A stretch of DNA of 38,209 nucleotides, taken from a virus (taxonomy: Duplodnaviria; Heunggongvirae; Uroviricota; Caudoviricetes). Positions 1,331-38,209 of this stretch are shown piece by piece (the first letter of the stretch is position 1; every line of letters begins with the position of its first letter). The notes below the pieces were generated by a model that worked only from the letters and a program-made list of their open reading frames with translations, was not told where the DNA came from and did not search any database. Position numbers and translations under genes: made by a program. The DNA lies in the IMG/VR virus record IMGVR_UViG_2545824644_000015, positions 1 to 38,209 of that record. One strand, 5' to 3'.

Positions 1331-2458
1331 CTATAATTGATCGCCTTCTATTTTTTCAACTCGAGTGGTTGAAACATCATTCTTAAATCCACTCCACCAT
1401 TTTCTTAGCTTATTGTTTATTGGCTTTTCAAAAAACAAATACATCATTATTGATATAAATAATGAAGCAAACAGAGCCATTACTATAAATTTAATTACAT
1501 TTATAGCACCAAGACCAGAAACATTAAAGAACTTGCTCAATGTACTGATTACTATAGTGTGGACCAAGTAAAATGAAAAAGAAGCATCACCTAAAAGTAT
1601 CATAACTTTATTTGATATTATTTTTGAAATAATACCACCATTAAACGAAAACACTAATATTGAAAAGGCCATTGATGGTATAAAAAGCGCATCATACTGT
1701 AATCCATTGCTATTTTGACTTTTTGCCACCATATAGACAGACATTAGGATAAAGACTACAGATGATATTTCAGCAAATGATAGAACTAAATATGACGGCT
1801 TTGACTTAAACTCAAAATATAGTTTACACAATATAATACCGATTAAAAAGTCAGGCAACCTATTAAAAGGGTTTATGTAAAAGAACCAGTGAGAGAACGC
1901 ATCACTAATTTCCCCATAGCTTGCCATGTAAATAACATTAATTAAAATTAACGCAGCAAACAAAGCGAGCATTCTTTTTCGCGCGAAAATTATAAAACAA
2001 AAAGAAACATAAAAGAACATTTCTACAGAAATGCTCCAGGATACTGCATTGAATGAGAAATAGTCTTCCTTATCTACTGAGTAAGACTGAATTAATAGTG
2101 CATTTTTTATTATAGACAATATATTTGGTGAGAATCCACCACCTAATATTGAGTGTCCAACTATAAACACAGTCAAGCAAAGCAAATGTACTGGATATAT
2201 TCTAAATACTCGATGCGCAAGAAAATCAACGAAACTTCCGTTTCCATTACGCAATGAAATAGTAAAACTATATGTTAATATAAACCCAGATAAAATAAAA
2301 AAGAAAGTAACACCAGAATACCCAAGTTTAAAATATTCAAATGATGAAGCAAAATCTCTATTACTTGAATTTTGTATTACCGCCATGTGGCTAAAAAACA
2401 CCCCAAGGGCTGCAAATGCCCTTAGGGATGTCAGGCTATTTAGTCTTTCTGCGCGCAT
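1331..2458 (-). CDS. oac: Integral-membrane acyltransferase-3 family protein, probable O-antigen O-acetyltransferase (serotype conversion)
   Basis: Highly hydrophobic multi-TM ORF; N-terminus LTSLRAFAALGVFFSHM typical of acyltransferase-3; very AT-rich; sits between tailspike and integrase as oac does in Sf6. Start chosen at internal Met 13. Confidence 0.75.
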   Translation of the reverse strand: MRAERLNSLTSLRAFAALGVFFSHMAVIQNSSNRDFASSFEYFKLGYSGVTFFFILSGFILTYSFTISLRNGNGSFVDFLAHRVFRIYPVHLLCLTVFIVGHSILGGGFSPNILSIIKNALLIQSYSVDKEDYFSFNAVSWSISVEMFFYVSFCFIIFARKRMLALFAALILINVIYMASYGEISDAFSHWFFYINPFNRLPDFLIGIILCKLYFEFKSKPSYLVLSFAEISSVVFILMSVYMVAKSQNSNGLQYDALFIPSMAFSILVFSFNGGIISKIISNKVMILLGDASFSFYLVHTIVISTLSKFFNVSGLGAINVIKFIVMALFASLFISIMMYLFFEKPINNKLRKWWSGFKNDVSTTRVEKIEGDQL

Positions 2459-2567
2459 GATACACCTATGTTTTAATGCACAAAAATGCAACAAAAGATT
2501 GATGATACCATAAGCAACAGAAAAATCACATGATCACTTACTCACGTTCAACTTGTACCATCAGAAT

Positions 2568-5563: not shown

Positions 5564-5913
5564 ATATGTCGCTCGCAGAACTCAACAAGCCTGCTCATTA
5601 AGTAGCAGTAAGTCTCGTTGGCTCTTCCTGGTTCAACATCAACACCGACCCTTGAGCAGATATCGAATGCCATGTGAGCGCACTCATGGGCAATAGTAGA
5701 TAGTTTGCCATTGAACACGCCTATCACATGCAAAACACCATTCTCGCTGCTCATTGTATGAGACGCTCCGTTGGCATCCGAGTCCTGCACGTCCACACCA
5801 AGTTTTTGATGCAGGCGTTGCCATTCTGGAAAGTCTCTACAAAACACAATTGTACCGCTCTCAAAGAGCGGAACGAGCATCTTTGGTACGTTTCCAATGT
5901 TAACTTTTTTCAT
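5548..5913 (-). CDS. Hypothetical protein with HExxH motif (possible small zinc metallopeptidase, ImmA/IrrE-like)
   Basis: ORF with internal start MKKVNIG (AGGA 4 nt upstream); contains HECAH with downstream Glu residues; no other recognisable domain. Confidence 0.4.
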   Translation of the reverse strand: MKKVNIGNVPKMLVPLFESGTIVFCRDFPEWQRLHQKLGVDVQDSDANGASHTMSSENGVLHVIGVFNGKLSTIAHECAHMAFDICSRVGVDVEPGRANETYCYLMSRLVEFCERHIKKPE

Positions 5914-5947
5914 GGTATCCTGCGCAAAACTAAGGAGGTTGGTGTGA
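5913..5947. repeat. 35-bp exact repeat copy 1 (tggtatcctgcgcaaaactaaggaggttggtgtga) carrying SD plus GTG start
   Basis: Identical to 7678..7712; contains aaggagg SD and GTG start of the downstream plus-strand gene; reverse strand supplies AGGA RBS and abuts start codon of the minus-strand HExxH gene. Confidence 0.9.
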
Positions 5948-6333
5948 AGCAATTTCTTGCTGCTATGTTCTTATTCATATCTTTTGGGGCTACAGCAGAG
6001 TGCTGGGTCGTTGGAGATATGCGCGGAATAAGCTATTCAGAACGAAATAATTTCCATCCGGAAGAAGATGGTTTTAGTGGAACATTCATCATTAAGACAA
6101 GCGGTGAAGATGCCAGCATCACATATTCTGGGACAGATGCGGGCGGCATGGCTTACAAAGCATTGTCTAAAAACTCCATCATAGGAATCGGCGCGAATGG
6201 CGAAACTCAACGCGTTATCGACTCATGGGTAATACATCCTACTGGAACAGTTTTAATGTCAAAAACCATTTCCGGTTATGGAAATATGGATTCAACCAAA
6301 GCTTTTGTTGGAAAAGTAAAAAGAAAATGTTAA
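5944..6333 (+). CDS. Secreted/periplasmic hypothetical protein (signal peptide)
   Basis: GTG start 7 nt after aaggagg; N-terminus VKQFLAAMFLFISFGATA-ECW has n/h/c signal-peptide architecture; Cys near both termini of the mature protein. Confidence 0.6.
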   Translation: MKQFLAAMFLFISFGATAECWVVGDMRGISYSERNNFHPEEDGFSGTFIIKTSGEDASITYSGTDAGGMAYKALSKNSIIGIGANGETQRVIDSWVIHPTGTVLMSKTISGYGNMDSTKAFVGKVKRKC

Positions 6334-6583: not shown

Positions 6584-7552
6584 TTAGATTTCTGGTTTCA
6601 TTCTTCCGAAAACCTTTTCTATTCCTTTTTCGTATTCTTCTCTTGTCTCACTCATCGCTGCGACACCAAGAAGCTTACCGATATGCTGACGCAAAGCCTT
6701 GACACCAATTTCAGAAAGGAACAGATGCAACTTATCAGATTGTTTTCCGTTCTCGTCTCGGCTGGCTCGAATCTGTTCAAGGATTTTACCTTTACTCTTT
6801 GCTAGCGGGGTGTATATCTGCATGTTGGTTAGCTGCCCAAAACGAATAGGTCGTCCTTTCTCTGGCCTATTCAGGCCGTACAGTCGATACCACTCCTCGT
6901 ATAGCTCATCTGGAAATTCCTTTTCATATTGACGAGCCTCTTCACGAACAAACGCTTTGAACTCGTCAATGACAGCCTGAACTTCTGGACGATAACCAGC
7001 AAGCGCATACGCAACCCCCTTAATTCCCGCCTTAGCGGAGGCATTAATAAGTCTCTGTGCTGCGGCGGCTGCCTTTAACCGTGATTGTGGTAGATCGTCA
7101 TTATCTTTGGCTTCTATTAGTGCCCTACCAATATCAACAATTGCTGTAATGTCATAACCTAACGCTTGATGAACGGTTTTAGACTTCGAAGTAAGTTGAA
7201 ATTTATAGGGATTTTCCATTTTTCGCTGCAATTCTAGATCTCGGTATTTGCTCATATACTGAGCGCCAAGCAGTTGATCTAAATCCCTGGCATGTTCACC
7301 AATCCCTAGCAACTGAGATAATCCAGTTTTCGTAACAACGACAGTTTTCGACTCGTCATCCAGTACATAACATTCAGCATCAATGCCAAAATCATCTAAA
7401 AAGTTACCACGATGAGTTGCCCTGAGAATCTTACTTTTCCATCTTGCAGCAGCTGCTTTCTTTGCTATTTCAGAACGCTGCTCTTTAGTCAGCGACTTTG
7501 CGCGAGCGATCCCGCCCTTAGCTTTCCCTTCGCCACTTTTCTTTTCAGTCAT
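6584..7552 (-). CDS. Hypothetical protein, P63C-domain-like with basic N-terminal region
   Basis: N-terminus MTEKKSGEGKAKGGIARAKSLTKEQRSEIAKKAAAARW resembles the conserved N-terminal motif of phage P63C-domain proteins (from memory); start placed at Met22 so the operator-like repeats lie upstream. Confidence 0.5.
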   Translation of the reverse strand: MTEKKSGEGKAKGGIARAKSLTKEQRSEIAKKAAAARWKSKILRATHRGNFLDDFGIDAECYVLDDESKTVVVTKTGLSQLLGIGEHARDLDQLLGAQYMSKYRDLELQRKMENPYKFQLTSKSKTVHQALGYDITAIVDIGRALIEAKDNDDLPQSRLKAAAAAQRLINASAKAGIKGVAYALAGYRPEVQAVIDEFKAFVREEARQYEKEFPDELYEEWYRLYGLNRPEKGRPIRFGQLTNMQIYTPLAKSKGKILEQIRASRDENGKQSDKLHLFLSEIGVKALRQHIGKLLGVAAMSETREEYEKGIEKVFGRMKPEI

Positions 7553-7553
7553 A

Positions 7554-7643
7554 ATGCAAGCACCTTTGTTGTGATGTATGCTTGCATTATATGCACTGTA
7601 CACACATACAAGCAAGCATAAAACAAAAACAAAATGCTTGCAT
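7554..7643. promoter_or_regulatory. Cluster of four 10-bp operator-like repeats (ATGCTTGCAT and inverse) in divergent intergenic region
   Basis: ATGCTTGCATTA at 7578 and 7634 (identical 12-mers); inverted near-copies ATGCAAGCAC at 7554 and AAGCAAGCAT at 7610. Confidence 0.5.
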
Positions 7644-7677
7644 TACAACCGCGCTACTCCAACTACACATTATCATC

Positions 7678-7712
7678 TGGTATCCTGCGCAAAACTAAGG
7701 AGGTTGGTGTGA
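7678..7712. repeat. 35-bp exact repeat copy 2 carrying SD plus GTG start
   Basis: Identical to 5913..5947. Confidence 0.9.
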
Positions 7713-8158
7713 GTGAAAAATTATCAGTTGAGATTTACAGGGATGCCAAAAAATTGATTAAAAAGGCATTGCTGATTTCCCTATCTTTGTTAGCCATTGC
7801 CATTGTTTATTTTGTGGCAGACAAAATCTATACAGAACAAAAAAATAGCAAAAAAAGCGCTGAACTGATTATGCGAGCCGAAAATGCTGTCAAGGGTAAA
7901 TCACCCATGGTATTCAACAGAACATTCCTTGGCGAAAGCTCCTCTATTTCTGTTTGGTTTATTAATGATTCAGATGGGCATATTCTTGTAGAAAAAAACG
8001 GTGAAAAATCATTGTTTTCATCAAGAGAATCCGTATACGGTGGCATCAATGCATACCATCAAGCCGGAAAGGCATGTGAAACCCTGTCTTTTTCTATGAC
8101 TTCAGGTTTTGTGATATCTGTTTCTTGCGATTTTGATGATTATTACACTAAAAAATAG
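7709..8158 (+). CDS. Membrane-anchored hypothetical protein (candidate superinfection-exclusion/moron product)
   Basis: GTG start after aaggagg inside the repeat; basic N-terminus followed by hydrophobic segment LLISLSLLAIAIVYFV; occupies the sieA/immI position of P22-like phages. Confidence 0.5.
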   Translation: MSEKLSVEIYRDAKKLIKKALLISLSLLAIAIVYFVADKIYTEQKNSKKSAELIMRAENAVKGKSPMVFNRTFLGESSSISVWFINDSDGHILVEKNGEKSLFSSRESVYGGINAYHQAGKACETLSFSMTSGFVISVSCDFDDYYTKK

Positions 8159-24048: not shown

Positions 24049-24124
24049 TGGTGCTGGTTAACGGACTTGAACCGCTACCCATTCGCTTACAAGGCGACTG
24101 CTCTACCATTGGAGCTAAACCAGC
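24049..24124 (-). tRNA. tRNA-Thr (anticodon UGU), CCA encoded
   Basis: Hand-folded cloverleaf: 7-bp perfect acceptor stem, perfect 4-bp D stem, anticodon loop CUUGUAA, T-loop TTCAAGT, discriminator A then CCA. Confidence 0.7.
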
Positions 24125-24129
24125 ATATT

Positions 24130-24204
24130 TGGCGGGACAGCGTGGACTCGAACCACGATAAGAAGGTTAACAGCCTTCCGTAATTACCTTTATACGACTG
24201 ACCC
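24130..24204 (-). tRNA. tRNA-Asn (anticodon GUU), CCA encoded; one acceptor-stem mismatch
   Basis: Hand-folded: T-arm CGTGG-TTCGAGT-CCACG, anticodon loop CUGUUAA, acceptor stem 6/7 paired, D stem 3/4 paired; could be a degenerate copy. Confidence 0.55.
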
Positions 24205-24397: not shown

Positions 24398-24889
24398 CTA
24401 TCCCATACTGGAGAATTCACCATGATATTTTATCCTGGCATTTTCCATTGCCTTTCTCGCCTCCTCGATATCGTCAAAACACCCTACATGAATCCTTTTA
24501 CCATTGACCCTAATTCTTCCAACCCACTTGTTTGCAGCAGAATTAAAAGTCACCCCCTTCACACCAGATGAATTGTTTTTCCTCATCTTGCTGTTCCATG
24601 AGTTTTGAGTGTTAGTAACAACACGAAGATTGGCTATCCGGTTATCAGATCTATCACCATTAATATGGTCAATCACATCGGTTGGCCAATCATTGTAAAC
24701 CATCAGCCATGCAATTCTATGGACATATAGCCGCATCCCATAAAGTTTTACCTGCAGATATCCATTTGTTTTATAGCCAACAACAGCGCCATAGATAAAT
24801 CTAGAAGACCGAGGTGGATTCTTCCATGTAAGAATTCCAGTATCTGGATTGTAATTAAAAAGTCTCAATGCATCTTCACGTTTTAACAT
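24398..24889 (-). CDS. HNH homing endonuclease (HNH_3 with AP2-like DNA-binding region)
   Basis: 163 aa with VIDHINGDRSDNRIANLRVVTNTQN HNH core and C-terminal GV(K/T)...W...GRIRVNGK...GCF AP2-type repeat; AT-rich. Confidence 0.85.
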   Translation of the reverse strand: MLKREDALRLFNYNPDTGILTWKNPPRSSRFIYGAVVGYKTNGYLQVKLYGMRLYVHRIAWLMVYNDWPTDVIDHINGDRSDNRIANLRVVTNTQNSWNSKMRKNNSSGVKGVTFNSAANKWVGRIRVNGKRIHVGCFDDIEEARKAMENARIKYHGEFSSMG

Positions 24890-26884: not shown

Positions 26885-27047
26885 CGTCTTCTTCCTCGTA
26901 CATTGAGCTATTCGGATCGCTCATCAGTTCTGCGCAGCAATCTGAGCACACGTGAACTTCCAGCACATGCAGCTTCTGACCGCAGTTAGCGCACGTTAAA
27001 GCCCGCTCGACGCTTTGTTGTTCGTAACTTCGATTTGGGTCAATCAC
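26875..27047 (-). pseudogene. ninF: ninF-like gene disrupted by +1 frameshift
   Basis: Frame C gives [17 protein letters not shown]-stop; frame B continues RAGALTCANCGQKLHVLEVHVCSDCCAELMSDPNSSMYEEEDDE; removing one G from gagcgggcgct joins them into a NinF-like protein. Confidence 0.5.
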
Positions 27048-27226
27048 CTTGTTTTCCTCGCACGTTCTCTAAGCCACCGGATATCCCACAGGTGAGCCGT
27101 GTAGTTGAAGGTTTTTACGTCAGATTCTTTTGGGATTGGCTTGCGTTTATTTCTGGAGCGTTTCGTTGGAAGGTATTTGCAGTTTTCGCAGATGATGTCG
27201 GTGATACTTCGTCGCTGTCGTCTCAT
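27044..27226 (-). CDS. ninE: NinE
   Basis: 60 aa [60 protein letters not shown], close to lambda NinE as remembered. Confidence 0.85.
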
Positions 27227-27750
27227 GCAGCCCTCCTGACGCCCTGCCCGATCGCCATCAATGCCGCTTTGGATACGGTGGTAAACATCCGTCGAGGACT
27301 GATGAACGGTCGCCAAATCAGCAGCATGGAGCCTTTGCTGTTTCCCTTCTTCTCCAGCCCTGTCGATGGTTCGATAAAATTAATCCGTCCATCAGTGATA
27401 ATACGAACTTCGTCGACACTCTCCAGAGCCTTGCTGAACCATCCGACTGACATATCCTCTGGCACAAGCATCACTACCGTCTGTCGCTGTTGTATGCACT
27501 GTTCAGCGGCTTTTTCCACCCACGGCCTGATATTGCTGTACGGTGGGTTATTCCAGATTGCACCGTGGCTTACCCACTCAGAATTTAGCGCGTCGTCGGC
27601 CTCAGTTAACCAGTGAGCGCACAGAGCATTTTTGTCGCTCGCTGCCGAATCCAGCCAGAATCCAAACTCAATATCCAGTGCATCAAAAAGCCAAAGCGGC
27701 GTTTGCCAGCAGTCCTTGTCGTGTGCTGGCGTATTTGATTTGATAGTCAT
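27223..27750 (-). CDS. Orphan DNA N6-adenine methyltransferase (phage Dam-like)
   Basis: NPPY catalytic motif ([10 protein letters not shown]); DCWQTP motif typical of phage N6A methylases; start at Met10 (ATGA overlap with ninB). Confidence 0.8.
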
Positions 27751-28196
27751 GCAGCTCTCCCTTTTCGTTGTGACCATTCATACTCTCGCCGGGAGTCATC
27801 ACTCCACCGCACGTTGCGCTCTGAGCCGAACCAAAACATGATTTCGATAAGCTCAGTCATGCTGGCCTTTCGCATTTTGCTGGTACGCACGCCAAGCATG
27901 ACAACGCCACCGTCGATACCAGGAACACTTCGTTGCTCCAGTTTTTTGGTCTTAAGCCACAGGGCAGTGAACAGGTCTTTCCAGTCTTCCGGTGCCAGCC
28001 GTTGACCATGCCATAGCACCTGACGCGAAACATCGTTCAGCATCGGCCACATACGGTCATTCTGCGCTTTGCTGCGCTTGGGTTCTTTAACGTGGACTTC
28101 GTGGGGTGACTTGTCGTCGATGGGTAGTGAGAGAATGGCGTCTATGGCGTTATTTCTGATTGCTTCGTTGCGAAGCAGAAAAGTTTGTTTTGTCAT
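27747..28196 (-). CDS. ninB: NinB (Orf-family recombination mediator)
   Basis: 149 aa; SKAQNDRMWPMLNDVSRQVLWHG and C-terminal RWSDDSRREYEW match lambda NinB pattern. Confidence 0.85.
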   Translation of the reverse strand: MTKQTFLLRNEAIRNNAIDAILSLPIDDKSPHEVHVKEPKRSKAQNDRMWPMLNDVSRQVLWHGQRLAPEDWKDLFTALWLKTKKLEQRSVPGIDGGVVMLGVRTSKMRKASMTELIEIMFWFGSERNVRWSDDSRREYEWSQRKGRAA

Positions 28197-28398
28197 GCTT
28201 CATCATCTCGTTCCATGCATCCATGCATTCTTGGTGGCTATTTCGCGTAACCTCTATCTTCGTTTTCTCACCTTCACACCAGTGGCGAAGGTAAACTTTC
28301 AGCACGATGTAACGCTGACCCGTCCAGTGCTTCGTTTCGTCGAATGTAGATATTCCGGAACCGCAAAATATGCACGGCTTTAACTCGCTCATACTCAC
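28150..28398 (-). CDS. Small zinc-finger protein, possibly Lar-like restriction alleviation
   Basis: 82 aa; ELKPCIFCGSG motif near N-terminus; 3' end overlaps ninB by 47 nt. Confidence 0.4.
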   Translation of the reverse strand: MSMSELKPCIFCGSGISTFDETKHWTGQRYIVLKVYLRHWCEGEKTKIEVTRNSHQECMDAWNEMMKHDKTNFSASQRSNQK

Positions 28399-28715
28399 TC
28401 CTTCACTTTGACTCCAGCAGCGCGGATGGCATCTACATCGCTTTCGTATTGCGATTCTGCACCTGAGTCATAGCCAATGTGATAATCACCGGGAAGTGGG
28501 CCTTTCTTTGGCTTTTGCAGCTCAATCTCGATAGCTGCTCGCGATGCCTGCCATAAAGTCCACCACTCATTTAAGGAGTGACGAATATCCATGCTTGAAA
28601 ATGCGAAGTACCTATCACCATTTCTTGCCTCGGTTATCATCTCGAATGGTAATTTCAATTTTTTGGCAACGTATTCCTCAAACTTCTTTCTTGATTCGTC
28701 CATATCACTCTCCAT
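28395..28715 (-). CDS. Hypothetical protein
   Basis: 106 aa ORF co-directional with early right operon. Confidence 0.5.
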   Translation of the reverse strand: MESDMDESRKKFEEYVAKKLKLPFEMITEARNGDRYFAFSSMDIRHSLNEWWTLWQASRAAIEIELQKPKKGPLPGDYHIGYDSGAESQYESDVDAIRAAGVKVKE

Positions 28716-33395: not shown

Positions 33396-33563
33396 ATGGA
33401 AATTGAAATACCAGACAGCTTCGACCCTGAATGGCAAGCAATGATGCTTCGCCAGTTAGCTGGAAACATTGAGGCCCTTAAAAATCGAGAAGATGAACCT
33501 GACGAACTACTTATCGACTGCGAGGAAATTATCGAATCTCTTCGCGAATATTCAGGATTTTAA
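33396..33563 (+). CDS. Small acidic hypothetical protein
   Basis: 55 aa; gagg RBS 6 nt upstream; followed directly by a terminator; below ORF-track cutoff. Confidence 0.45.
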   Translation: MEIEIPDSFDPEWQAMMLRQLAGNIEALKNREDEPDELLIDCEEIIESLREYSGF

Positions 33564-33589
33564 GGCCGAATAGTCGGCCTTTATTTTTG
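33563..33589 (+). terminator. Rho-independent terminator (tL1-like)
   Basis: ggccga-atag-tcggcc followed by tttattttt. Confidence 0.75.
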
Positions 33590-33610
33590 GCACTAACAAC
33601 AGAGGCTAAC

Positions 33611-33907
33611 ATGGAATTTAAAGGTACTGAAGGTAAGTGGGAAATAATGATGGATGGCGATGAGATTAAAATCATCCAGGCAGACTCACTTGAAAATGGC
33701 GCTGGCTGGCGTTCGTATATTGCAATCTGTGAGGAAGTTCAATGCATTGAAGATGCCAATCTAATAGCGGCAGCACCTGACCTTCTCGAAGCGCTTCAGT
33801 TATTACTTAAGCAAACCAAAAATAGAACAACGACAACATATCCAGAATGGTATGGAGCTGTTAATAAAGGTCTTGCAGCAATCAGAAAAGCTCTTGGGGA
33901 AGAATGA
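33611..33907 (+). CDS. Hypothetical protein
   Basis: 98 aa from MEFKGTEG; agagg RBS. Confidence 0.5.
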   Translation: MEFKGTEGKWEIMMDGDEIKIIQADSLENGAGWRSYIAICEEVQCIEDANLIAAAPDLLEALQLLLKQTKNRTTTTYPEWYGAVNKGLAAIRKALGEE

Positions 33908-34065
33908 TGAATAAGAAATACATTGTTGAAGTTATAGAGCGAGAAACGAAAGAAGTAATTAAACATTTCGAATTTGATAATTATAGAAAAGCTGACCGCG
34001 TAGAAGAAGGATTGTTGCGACAAAGTAATCTCGAAAAATTTGATGTTGTCATGCGATGCGAATAA
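33904..34065 (+). CDS. Small hypothetical protein
   Basis: 53 aa; ATGATG start overlapping upstream stop; AT-rich. Confidence 0.4.
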   Translation: MMNKKYIVEVIERETKEVIKHFEFDNYRKADRVEEGLLRQSNLEKFDVVMRCE

Positions 34066-34158
34066 GCACCTATAGCAGATTTGCGAGTCTGCTATGTGAG
34101 CAATGTCGCTCGTAACTAAACAGGAGCCGACTTGTTCTGATTATTGGAAATCTTCTTC

Positions 34159-34183
34159 GCCCTCCAGTGTGAGGGCTTTTTTA
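34159..34183 (+). terminator. Rho-independent terminator
   Basis: gccctc-cagtgt-gagggc followed by tttttt. Confidence 0.8.
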
Positions 34184-34248
34184 TATGCATACCAATAACG
34201 CTTCACTCGAGGCGTTTTCGTTATGCAATCAAACAGAAGGAGCATCCT

Positions 34249-34419
34249 ATGCAACAGTTCGCTATTGCAGGGGCGGCATCGGTTCGCCCTTTCAACCCAA
34301 TTTTATCGGTGCAGCATTCACGAAAAAATATTTTAACCGGAGCAGACTTTAAACAACCAAGAATGAAAAGTTTGCTCGAAAAGCTTTGGGATATTTTGAA
34401 ACAACAAGGCCGTCCATGA
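34249..34419 (+). CDS. CIII-like protein (putative FtsH inhibitor)
   Basis: 56 aa MQQFAIAGA...LLEKLWDILKQQGRP; resembles lambda CIII ends (MQYAIAG...DILNQPG); aaggag RBS. Confidence 0.5.
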   Translation: MQQFAIAGAASVRPFNPILSVQHSRKNILTGADFKQPRMKSLLEKLWDILKQQGRP

Positions 34420-34586
34420 GTTTTACAGATAACTGGTCAGACGAAGAATTCATTCGTCAGATGAAAGAATTAATCGGTAACGAAGGAGATATTCATGTCA
34501 CTTGCAACCACAGTGAAGGAGAGCAAGTTACAGAGACGCATGTACACGCAGCAGGCGTTAATGTATCGCCAGAAGGGAGATCGTGA
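34416..34586 (+). CDS. Hypothetical protein (kil position)
   Basis: 56 aa; ATGA overlap with upstream stop; overlaps next ORF in another frame. Confidence 0.35.
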   Translation: MSFTDNWSDEEFIRQMKELIGNEGDIHVTCNHSEGEQVTETHVHAAGVNVSPEGRS

Positions 34587-34665
34587 AGGTGTTCGCGTAT
34601 TTTTAAATGCGGCAAAGACTGAAGTATTAAATCAGCGTTATTTCCTTGGGCCATGTCCATTCTGA
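34495..34665 (+). CDS. Hypothetical basic protein immediately upstream of erf (arf position)
   Basis: 56 aa MSLATTVKESKLQRR...; aggagat RBS; ends 10 nt before erf start. Confidence 0.4.
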   Translation: MSLATTVKESKLQRRMYTQQALMYRQKGDREGVRVFLNAAKTEVLNQRYFLGPCPF

Positions 34666-34675
34666 GAACAATCAT

Positions 34676-35281
34676 ATGAGCAAAGAATTTTACGCAAGAC
34701 TGGCAGCTATTCAGGAGAATCTGAACGCGCCAAAGAATCAGTACAACTCATTCGGAAAATATAAATACAGAAGCTGCGAAGACATTCTTGAAGGCGTTAA
34801 GCCGCTACTGAATGGCCTGTTTTTATCAATCAGCGATGAAGTTGTGTTGATTGGTGATCGGTATTATGTGAAAGCCACGGCAACTATTACCGATGGCGAA
34901 AACAGTCATACGGCAACCGCTCTTGCACGAGAGGAAGAAAGCAAGAAAGGAATGGATTCTGCACAAGTTACTGGAGCTACAAGCTCTTATGCACGCAAGT
35001 ATTGCCTCAATGGTTTGTTCGGCATTGATGATGCGAAAGATGCAGATACAGACGAGCATAAACATCAGCAGAACGCAGCAGCAAAGCAATCAAAACCATC
35101 ACCTACACCTGAACAGGTTCTAAAGGCATTCACTGACGCAGCAATGCAAAAAAACACCGTAGAAGAGCTTAAACAGGCGTTCGCCAAAGCGTGGAAGATG
35201 CTCGAAGGCACACCGGAGCAGCACAAAGCGCAGGACGTTTACAACATCAGACGAGATGAATTAGAAGGGGCAACTGCTTAA
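34676..35281 (+). CDS. erf: Erf single-strand annealing recombinase
   Basis: MSKEFYARLAAIQENLNAPKNQYNSFGKYKYRSCEDILEGVKPLL... near-identical to P22 Erf N-domain as remembered. Confidence 0.9.
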   Translation: MSKEFYARLAAIQENLNAPKNQYNSFGKYKYRSCEDILEGVKPLLNGLFLSISDEVVLIGDRYYVKATATITDGENSHTATALAREEESKKGMDSAQVTGATSSYARKYCLNGLFGIDDAKDADTDEHKHQQNAAAKQSKPSPTPEQVLKAFTDAAMQKNTVEELKQAFAKAWKMLEGTPEQHKAQDVYNIRRDELEGATA

Positions 35282-35684: not shown

Positions 35685-35981
35685 ATGCCAGCGCCTCTGT
35701 ATGGTGCGGATGACCAGCGCCGCTGTTCCGGCAAATCCGTATCGGAGGTGCTGGATAAATTCAGAAAAAACTACGACCTGATAATGTCGCTACCGCAGGA
35801 AACGAAAGAGGAAAAGGAATTTCGCCACTGTATATGGCTTGCAGAGAAAGAAGAACGCGAGCGAATTTACCAGACATCAATCCGACCATTCCGCAAAGCC
35901 ACATATACCCACTTCCCTGAATATATCGACCCGCGCCTGCGTAATTACCGCTCACGCTATGGCGCTATCAGTAATGACTGA
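35685..35981 (+). CDS. Abc2-like anti-RecBCD protein
   Basis: 98 aa [10 protein letters not shown]...[13 protein letters not shown]; position after erf as in P22; identity from memory only. Confidence 0.5.

Positions 35982-37205: not shown

Positions 37206-38209
<1,004 letters not shown>

Follow-up and report, generated by a model that had tools for sequence, protein, structure and literature searches.

We conclude with good confidence that this prophage carries an orphan dam gene whose product is identical to M.EcoVT2Dam, a functional small ORF that belongs to a divergent clade of Lar proteins, and a second Lar gene that has been killed by IS100, and that the two intact genes are independent modules. 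The first-pass annotation had taken these three genes together as layered defences against host restriction. The sequence features on which it drew are real and its interpretation is partly supported; an anti-restriction complement that acts as one layered unit is not supported.

Genomic context of the nin region

The window (the whole stretch of 38,209 nucleotides that was analysed) is a P22-like, CUS-3-like prophage of E. coli, and the genes considered here are part of its nin region. Enterobacteria phage CUS-3, a Lederbergvirus, matches window positions 14000-36885 with 96.5% identity (70% of the query). An integrase gene, an acyltransferase gene, and the gene for a P22-type tailspike lie at the start of the window, and are followed by the head genes, the lysis genes, Q, the nin genes (all on the minus strand), the replication genes (O and a DnaB-like P), the immunity genes, and the early-left operon with erf and abc2. 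The stretch as a whole is ordinary lambdoid phage content and not a new defence-evasion system, and a PADLOC search of the neighbouring unknown ORFs gave no defence-system match. The features referred to below are as follows.

1331-2494, minus strand: acyltransferase of the Acyl_transf_3 family, between the integrase and the tailspike
24398-24889, minus strand: homing-type endonuclease with HNH_3 and AP2 domains
27044-27226, minus strand: ninE (Pfam NinE, 144.3 bits, residues 31-88 of the long ORF)
27223-27750, minus strand: dam, predicted orphan phage N6-adenine (GATC) methyltransferase, 175 aa (Pfam, TIGR01712, identity to VT2-Sakai orf32, PADLOC)
27747-28196, minus strand: ninB, Orf-family recombination mediator, between dam and the Lar-like ORF (Pfam NinB, 164.1 bits, profile positions 2-131 of 131; PHROG 72)
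28150-28392, minus strand: predicted Lar-like small zinc-ribbon protein, 80 aa, CCHC/WTG clade (sub-threshold Lar scores, PHROG 599, hhalign, AF2 model, dN/dS)
28395-28715, minus strand: upstream ORF with no assigned function (PHROG 343), whose 3' end carries the AAGGAG ribosome-binding site used by the Lar-like ORF
34646-35281, plus strand: Erf recombinase
35685-35981, plus strand: Abc2 anti-RecBCD protein (Pfam, 204 bits)
37820-37897, plus strand: remnant of a canonical Lar-family gene, about 26 codons from its 5' end, pseudogene (92% identity over 26 aa to an intact-length relative)
37898-38209, minus strand: end of an IS100kyp-type element (IS21 family) with the C-terminal part of istB, which disrupts the Lar gene and continues beyond the window end

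An orphan methyltransferase identical to M.EcoVT2Dam

The proposal that the nin region encodes a Dam-like N6-adenine methyltransferase with an NPPY motif holds. The protein scores 218.1 bits against the Pfam Dam family (PF05869, cut-off 28.1) and 265.7 bits against TIGR01712, the NCBIfam equivalog for phage N-6-adenine methyltransferases (cut-off 97.05), and NPPY, which corresponds to catalytic motif IV, (D/N)PPY, occupies residues 68-71 of 175 (window 27538-27549). The long ORF spans 27223-27777. Because the alignment to the HMM starts only with residue 11 of this long ORF and RefSeq relatives are annotated at 528 bp, the start was assigned to the ATG at 27750, which overlaps the stop codon of ninB in an ATGA sequence; the start of ninE overlaps the stop codon of dam in the same manner (ATGA).

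All 175 residues of the dam product are identical to those of VT2-Sakai orf32, that is, M.EcoVT2Dam, an enzyme that PMC6602927, citing Radlinska and Bujnicki (2001), describes as targeting GATC. With the specificity carried over from the literature on this identical protein, the product is predicted to be a GATC m6A methyltransferase. The two genes also share the position between ninB and ninE and the ATGA-coupled arrangement; there is no difference at the protein level, and what differs is the carrier, as VT2-Sakai is an Stx-converting phage whereas the present gene resides in a P22-like podovirus. Judged from its sequence, then, the dam gene is already known, being an exact copy of a characterised enzyme that a large proportion of E. 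coli prophages encode, and it is by itself of little significance. A 2.5-kb nin query that includes dam gave matches in 2242 of the 5426 complete E. coli genomes, with a phage N-6-adenine-methyltransferase, NinB, and NinE annotated in every hit among the matches listed. The same query matches 425 phage records, among them many Stx phages, mEp213, HK97-like phages, Sf6, and Salmonella phages.

The methyltransferase had also been described as having no cognate endonuclease, and this was borne out, as its neighbours are ninB and ninE and no cognate restriction endonuclease lies nearby. Since PADLOC matches the protein to its orphan-MTase models (oMTase) and the only nuclease-like genes of the window are rusA, ybcO, and that of the HNH-AP2 homing endonuclease, the label 'orphan' is correct.

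Whether such an enzyme serves against restriction is a separate matter. In a Dam+ host, which already methylates GATC, no such role of the phage enzyme is established, and the term 'anti-restriction' for dam is therefore an inference and not a finding. Host Dam under-methylates the virion DNA of P22 and lambda, possibly because replication outruns the enzyme (PMC8022706), and the most economical reading is therefore that a phage copy completes the methylation. The Lar-like ORF, ninB, dam, and ninE form a translationally coupled chain that is read from the early-right operon, and the phage Dam would most likely top up GATC methylation on fast-replicating phage DNA that host Dam has left under-methylated. 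Progeny DNA that is fully methylated in this way would resist nucleases specific for the unmethylated site, such as MboI/DpnII-type enzymes or MutH. A Dam of this kind would provide a general maintenance function and would not be a dedicated anti-restriction device.

GATC is under-represented in the window, which has 80 sites where base composition predicts 147 and a Markov estimate 180, and this in spite of the GATC methylase that the phage encodes. Similar densities are reported for P22 (62 sites) and L (73 sites) (PMC8022706); the depletion is thus a trait of the group and says nothing specific about the phage dam. CTAG is also very rare in the window, with 9 sites.

A divergent Lar-clade protein upstream of ninB

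The other intact gene had been noticed as a small ORF with an ELKPCxFCG motif that overlaps the 3' end of ninB. Both the ORF and the overlap are real, although the overlap is with the 5' end of ninB and not the 3' end, and the motif reads ELKPCIFCG (28360-28386). The longest form of the ORF spans 28150-28398; its start is most likely the ATG at 28392, which follows AAGGAG at a distance of five bases and gives a protein of 80 aa. PGAP calls the same start and the same 80 aa in an identical prophage, where the product is named hypothetical.

Neither of the two Lar-like ORFs of the window reaches the threshold of the Pfam Lar family, an outcome that the first-pass annotation had itself named as one that would tell against its proposal. 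The ORF upstream of ninB scores 18.7 bits against Lar_restr_allev (PF14354, cut-off 28.6) and 19.1 bits against TIGR03655 (cut-off 39.6), and the second ORF, at 37820, has no Pfam Lar match. For comparison, RalR and VT2-Sakai orf30 score 53.5 and 41.2 bits, respectively, against Pfam Lar. PHROG 599, named 'Lar-like restriction alleviation protein', does match the ORF upstream of ninB (E 1.1e-7).

The four-Cys zinc ribbon of Lar proteins (CPFCG ... CxxC) is not complete in this protein, whose first knuckle is CIFCG and whose second is H37-W-C39-E-G-E, with the fourth Cys missing; the candidate zinc ligands are C7, C10, H37, and C39. When the protein is aligned with RalR, VT2-Sakai orf30, and a third Lar, residues C7, F9, C10, G11, C39, and W60-N61 are invariant, CEGE stands where the others have CxxC, and about 10 residues are inserted. 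The C-terminal helix with the conserved W-N pair is present (W60 and N61), and it spans residues 53-74 in an AF2 model that has a mean pLDDT of 84.9 and consists of the N-terminal knuckle, three strands, and the helix, with low confidence only for residues 67-80.

A word-index protein search with the Lar-like protein gave only 3 close relatives, and an exhaustive HMMER search was needed to recover its family, which comprises 130 clusters (at 50% identity) with E values up to 0.001, all of them matching residues 1-65. In these sequences, C7, C10, W23, G25, and C39 are invariant and P8, T24, H37, W60, and N61 nearly so; His-x-Cys stands in place of the second Cys-x-x-Cys knuckle, and a WTG hairpin forms a conserved insertion. 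The signature CxxC...W[TN]G...HxC is kept strictly in 113 of 129 members, most of the others differing only at the middle residue of WxG, and a second Cys pair occurs in only three of the 129. Because this signature is held across 130 clusters, we regard the ORF as a member of a conserved CCHC clade and not as a broken Lar. Most clusters are unnamed or 'hypothetical', the only domain fusions in longer members involve DUF551 and are uninformative, and a literature search found no experimental study of any member of the CCHC/WTG clade.

The clade nevertheless belongs with Lar. PF14354 is matched at E<0.01 by 57 of 60 members, its cut-off is passed by 10 of 20 sampled, and one relative, P0005, with 54% identity to the window protein, reaches 33.5 bits and so passes it. 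A profile of the clade aligns with the RalR/Lar profile in hhalign at 97.7% probability (E 1.6e-12), and the window protein as a single sequence still gives 77.5% (E 1.9e-5), even though its identity is only about 26-31% to canonical Lar proteins and about 25% over 60 aa to RalR. These comparisons argue that the ORF is truly, if remotely, homologous to Lar. The earlier description of the ORF as Lar-like thus stands at the level of remote homology, and falls short at that of the Pfam and TIGR03655 cut-offs and of the second CxxC.

Compared with Lar/RalR of the Rac prophage, the window protein is similar in size and has the same (K/E)PCxFCG knuckle at the N-terminus, a third Cys that follows a beta-hairpin, and a C-terminal helix with an invariant W-N. 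In contrast to RalR, it has H-W-C-E-G-E in place of the second C-x-x-C and a WTG hairpin of about 10 inserted residues, its WN is followed by EM and not by (K/R)R, and it lies below both curated cut-offs; moreover, its gene is located in the nin region whereas ralR adjoins recET.

Structural searches gave little to add. The protein sequence had no match in the PDB at E values up to 10, and a Foldseek search of the AF2 model against the PDB returned nothing below E 0.1; the loose resemblances to dsRBD, HPF, and MqsA-like folds that it did return were not trusted. Against BFVD, the only significant Foldseek match was an uncharacterised protein of Klebsiella phage MEW1, with annotated Lar proteins at E of about 0.12. 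The gene that occupies the same slot upstream of ninB in CUS-3, ECRS218_0038 (L004 14749-14961), was considered as a further Lar relative and rejected (hhalign probability 0.9%); it is a small Cys-rich ORF (CKCG...CQIYC...TEWN) that looks Lar-like only by eye.

The loss of a zinc ligand could also mean that the ORF is a decaying, functionless remnant of a canonical Lar. Its scores below the Pfam and TIGR03655 thresholds would agree with decay, as would its rarity in E. coli (4 of 5426 genomes), the PGAP name 'hypothetical', and the sequence CIFCG, given that P follows the first Cys in 118 of the 122 clade members whose knuckle motif can be read. However, conservation throughout the 130 clusters extends to both H-x-C and the WTG insert, the gene has a strong ribosome-binding site, and the predicted fold is a confident one. 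In addition, comparison with an orthologue from Salmonella (83% nucleotide identity) gave a dN/dS of 0.10 at a dS of 0.89, which indicates purifying selection. We therefore consider decay highly improbable. The ORF has instead the marks of a real, functional gene that is kept by purifying selection and belongs to a distinct clade of the Lar superfamily.

A second Lar gene interrupted by IS100

A second CPFCG protein had been reported at 37820. An ORF with this motif does exist there, but only about 26 of its codons are Lar codons and the rest is IS100 sequence. The homology, to a Lar-family gene carried by other prophages (92% over the first 26 residues), ends at about 37893-37898, and the segment that follows, 37898-38209, is 99.7% identical to the istB regions of Yersinia pestis IS100. 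A complete Lar domain, with both knuckles and the WN helix, is accordingly lacking; besides having no Pfam Lar match, the ORF scores 20.8 bits against TIGR03655 (cut-off 39.6), whereas its intact-length relative, in which neither the second knuckle nor the WN helix is missing, exceeds the Pfam Lar cut-off (29.9 vs 28.6). PGAP marks relatives of this ORF in other strains as partial. On this evidence, the second Lar gene is judged to be a pseudogene that was inactivated by IS100.

Independent modules around a mosaic junction

The Lar-like ORF and ninB, both on the minus strand, overlap by 47 nt, the 3' tail of the former covering the 5' end (the start) of the latter, so that the last 15 or so codons of the Lar-like ORF (28150-28196) are a read-through into ninB in another frame. 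In VT2-Sakai and phage 1717, a canonical Lar occupies the exact slot of the Lar-like ORF. The product, VT2-Sakai orf30 or 'Lar-like restriction alleviation protein', likewise lies directly upstream of ninB, overlaps it, and is annotated at 80 aa, in VT2-Sakai from a GTG start that has its counterpart two codons upstream of the start chosen here. It differs in being a canonical four-Cys Lar with no BLASTP similarity to the window protein outside the tail; only the last 14 or so residues are common to the two, and these are encoded by the shared 5' end of ninB in another frame. The Salmonella orthologue of the Lar-like gene, on the other hand, lies upstream of a DUF1367 gene and not of ninB, has a different tail, and has no dam nearby. 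The Salmonella counterpart of the ORF at 28395-28715 is a shorter, phiTE_015-like protein with an identical C-terminus.

Most database matches to the ninF-ninB module end at about window position 28177-28190, where we place a mosaic junction between the dam module and the Lar-like gene. Because the tail tracks ninB and differs in Salmonella, and most matches stop at this point, the overlap with ninB is a by-product of the junction, and the functional protein consists of approximately residues 1-65. Of the 5426 complete E. coli genomes, only 4 contain the Lar-like allele, whereas 2242 match the nin stretch with dam. No phage record matches the allele at high identity; matches at about 37% come from four Klebsiella phage records. 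As the Salmonella copy moreover stands without dam, we regard dam and the Lar-like gene as independent mosaic modules and not as a co-inherited pair.

These results bear directly on the proposal of a layered anti-restriction complement in which dam, the Lar-like protein, and the second Lar are selected together. All three genes have some annotated link to restriction evasion, Lar, ninB, and dam stand in a row in VT2-Sakai and phage 1717 as well, and the prophage also encodes the anti-RecBCD protein Abc2. However, the second Lar is destroyed by IS100 and cannot add a layer, the junction separates dam from the Lar-like gene, and the two differ greatly in their distribution. The Dam+ host already supplies GATC methylation, and a homologue of lambda or CUS-3 Ral, when looked for in the window, was absent, though the close relative CUS-3 has ral. 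A co-selected complement is therefore unlikely, and the claim of layered defences does not survive as a statement about a unit.

Possible function of the Lar-like protein

According to King and Murray (1995), as cited in PMC4041452 and PMC11482910, the Rac prophage protein Lar alleviates EcoKI restriction and enhances modification. By homology to Lar and by its positional replacement of Lar in the slot used by Stx phages, the Lar-like protein would most likely be a small protein that binds zinc and modulates a host nuclease or a type I restriction-modification complex, as reported for Lar. This analogy suggests a host restriction complex as the object of modulation, with low certainty on which one. 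The window contains no EcoKI site (AAC N6 GTGC) on either strand, where about 4-5 would be expected by chance, so that relief from EcoKI of the Lar type would be unnecessary for this genome. Lambda Ral, a functional analogue of Lar that enhances EcoKI modification (PMC12707154), has no sequence relationship to the Lar-like ORF.

The biochemical role of Lar itself is disputed, which weakens any transfer of function to a divergent clade. The Rac protein was later described as a non-specific DNase toxin, RalR, that is paired with the sRNA antitoxin RalA (PMC4041452). Accordingly, the Lar-like ORF could encode the toxin of a type I toxin-antitoxin pair, a DNase like RalR, and not an anti-restriction factor, and it speaks for this that RalR is the founding Lar protein and that NCBI now names its close relatives as such toxins. 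The window protein, however, is only distantly related to RalR and has one zinc ligand changed, and its place in a translationally coupled lytic operon is untypical of toxin-antitoxin genes. In an Rfam scan of the window, furthermore, only two tRNAs scored above threshold, although RalA may lie outside the Rfam models. A toxin is, on balance, a doubtful interpretation, and modulation of a host nuclease or restriction complex remains the one that we propose.

A more specific suggestion, which we put forward tentatively and consider possible rather than probable, is that the clade is a functionally distinct family of small anti-defence proteins that replaced canonical Lar in the nin slot and would target a nuclease or a restriction-modification type other than the EcoKI type. 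If it is true that the clade blocks a defence other than type IA restriction, this would add one more small phage counter-defence protein, a modest advance. The useful outcome of the present analysis is a correction of the annotation: a genuine, sub-threshold protein of the Lar superfamily has been left 'hypothetical' by the pipelines, and the second 'Lar' is a pseudogene.

Other features of the prophage

Several further observations were made outside the nin region. Genes for tRNA Thr (TGT) and tRNA Asn (GTT) lie at 24049-24204 on the minus strand, between Q and the lysis genes and beside the HNH-AP2 endonuclease. Between the tailspike and the ejection-protein genes, an immI-like region contains ORFs at 5728-6333 (plus strand), 7634-8158 (plus strand), and 6584-7615 (minus strand), one of which contains a P63C domain while the other two match nothing in Pfam or PADLOC. 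Downstream of N, the early-left region at 33396-34600 on the plus strand holds several small ORFs without family match, in the place where CUS-3 has ral. Abc2, absent from the earlier annotation, is a further counter-measure against a host nuclease. Finally, the acyltransferase at 1331-2494 is similar to those moron products of CUS-3 and Sf6-type phages that are O-acetyltransferases of surface polysaccharides.
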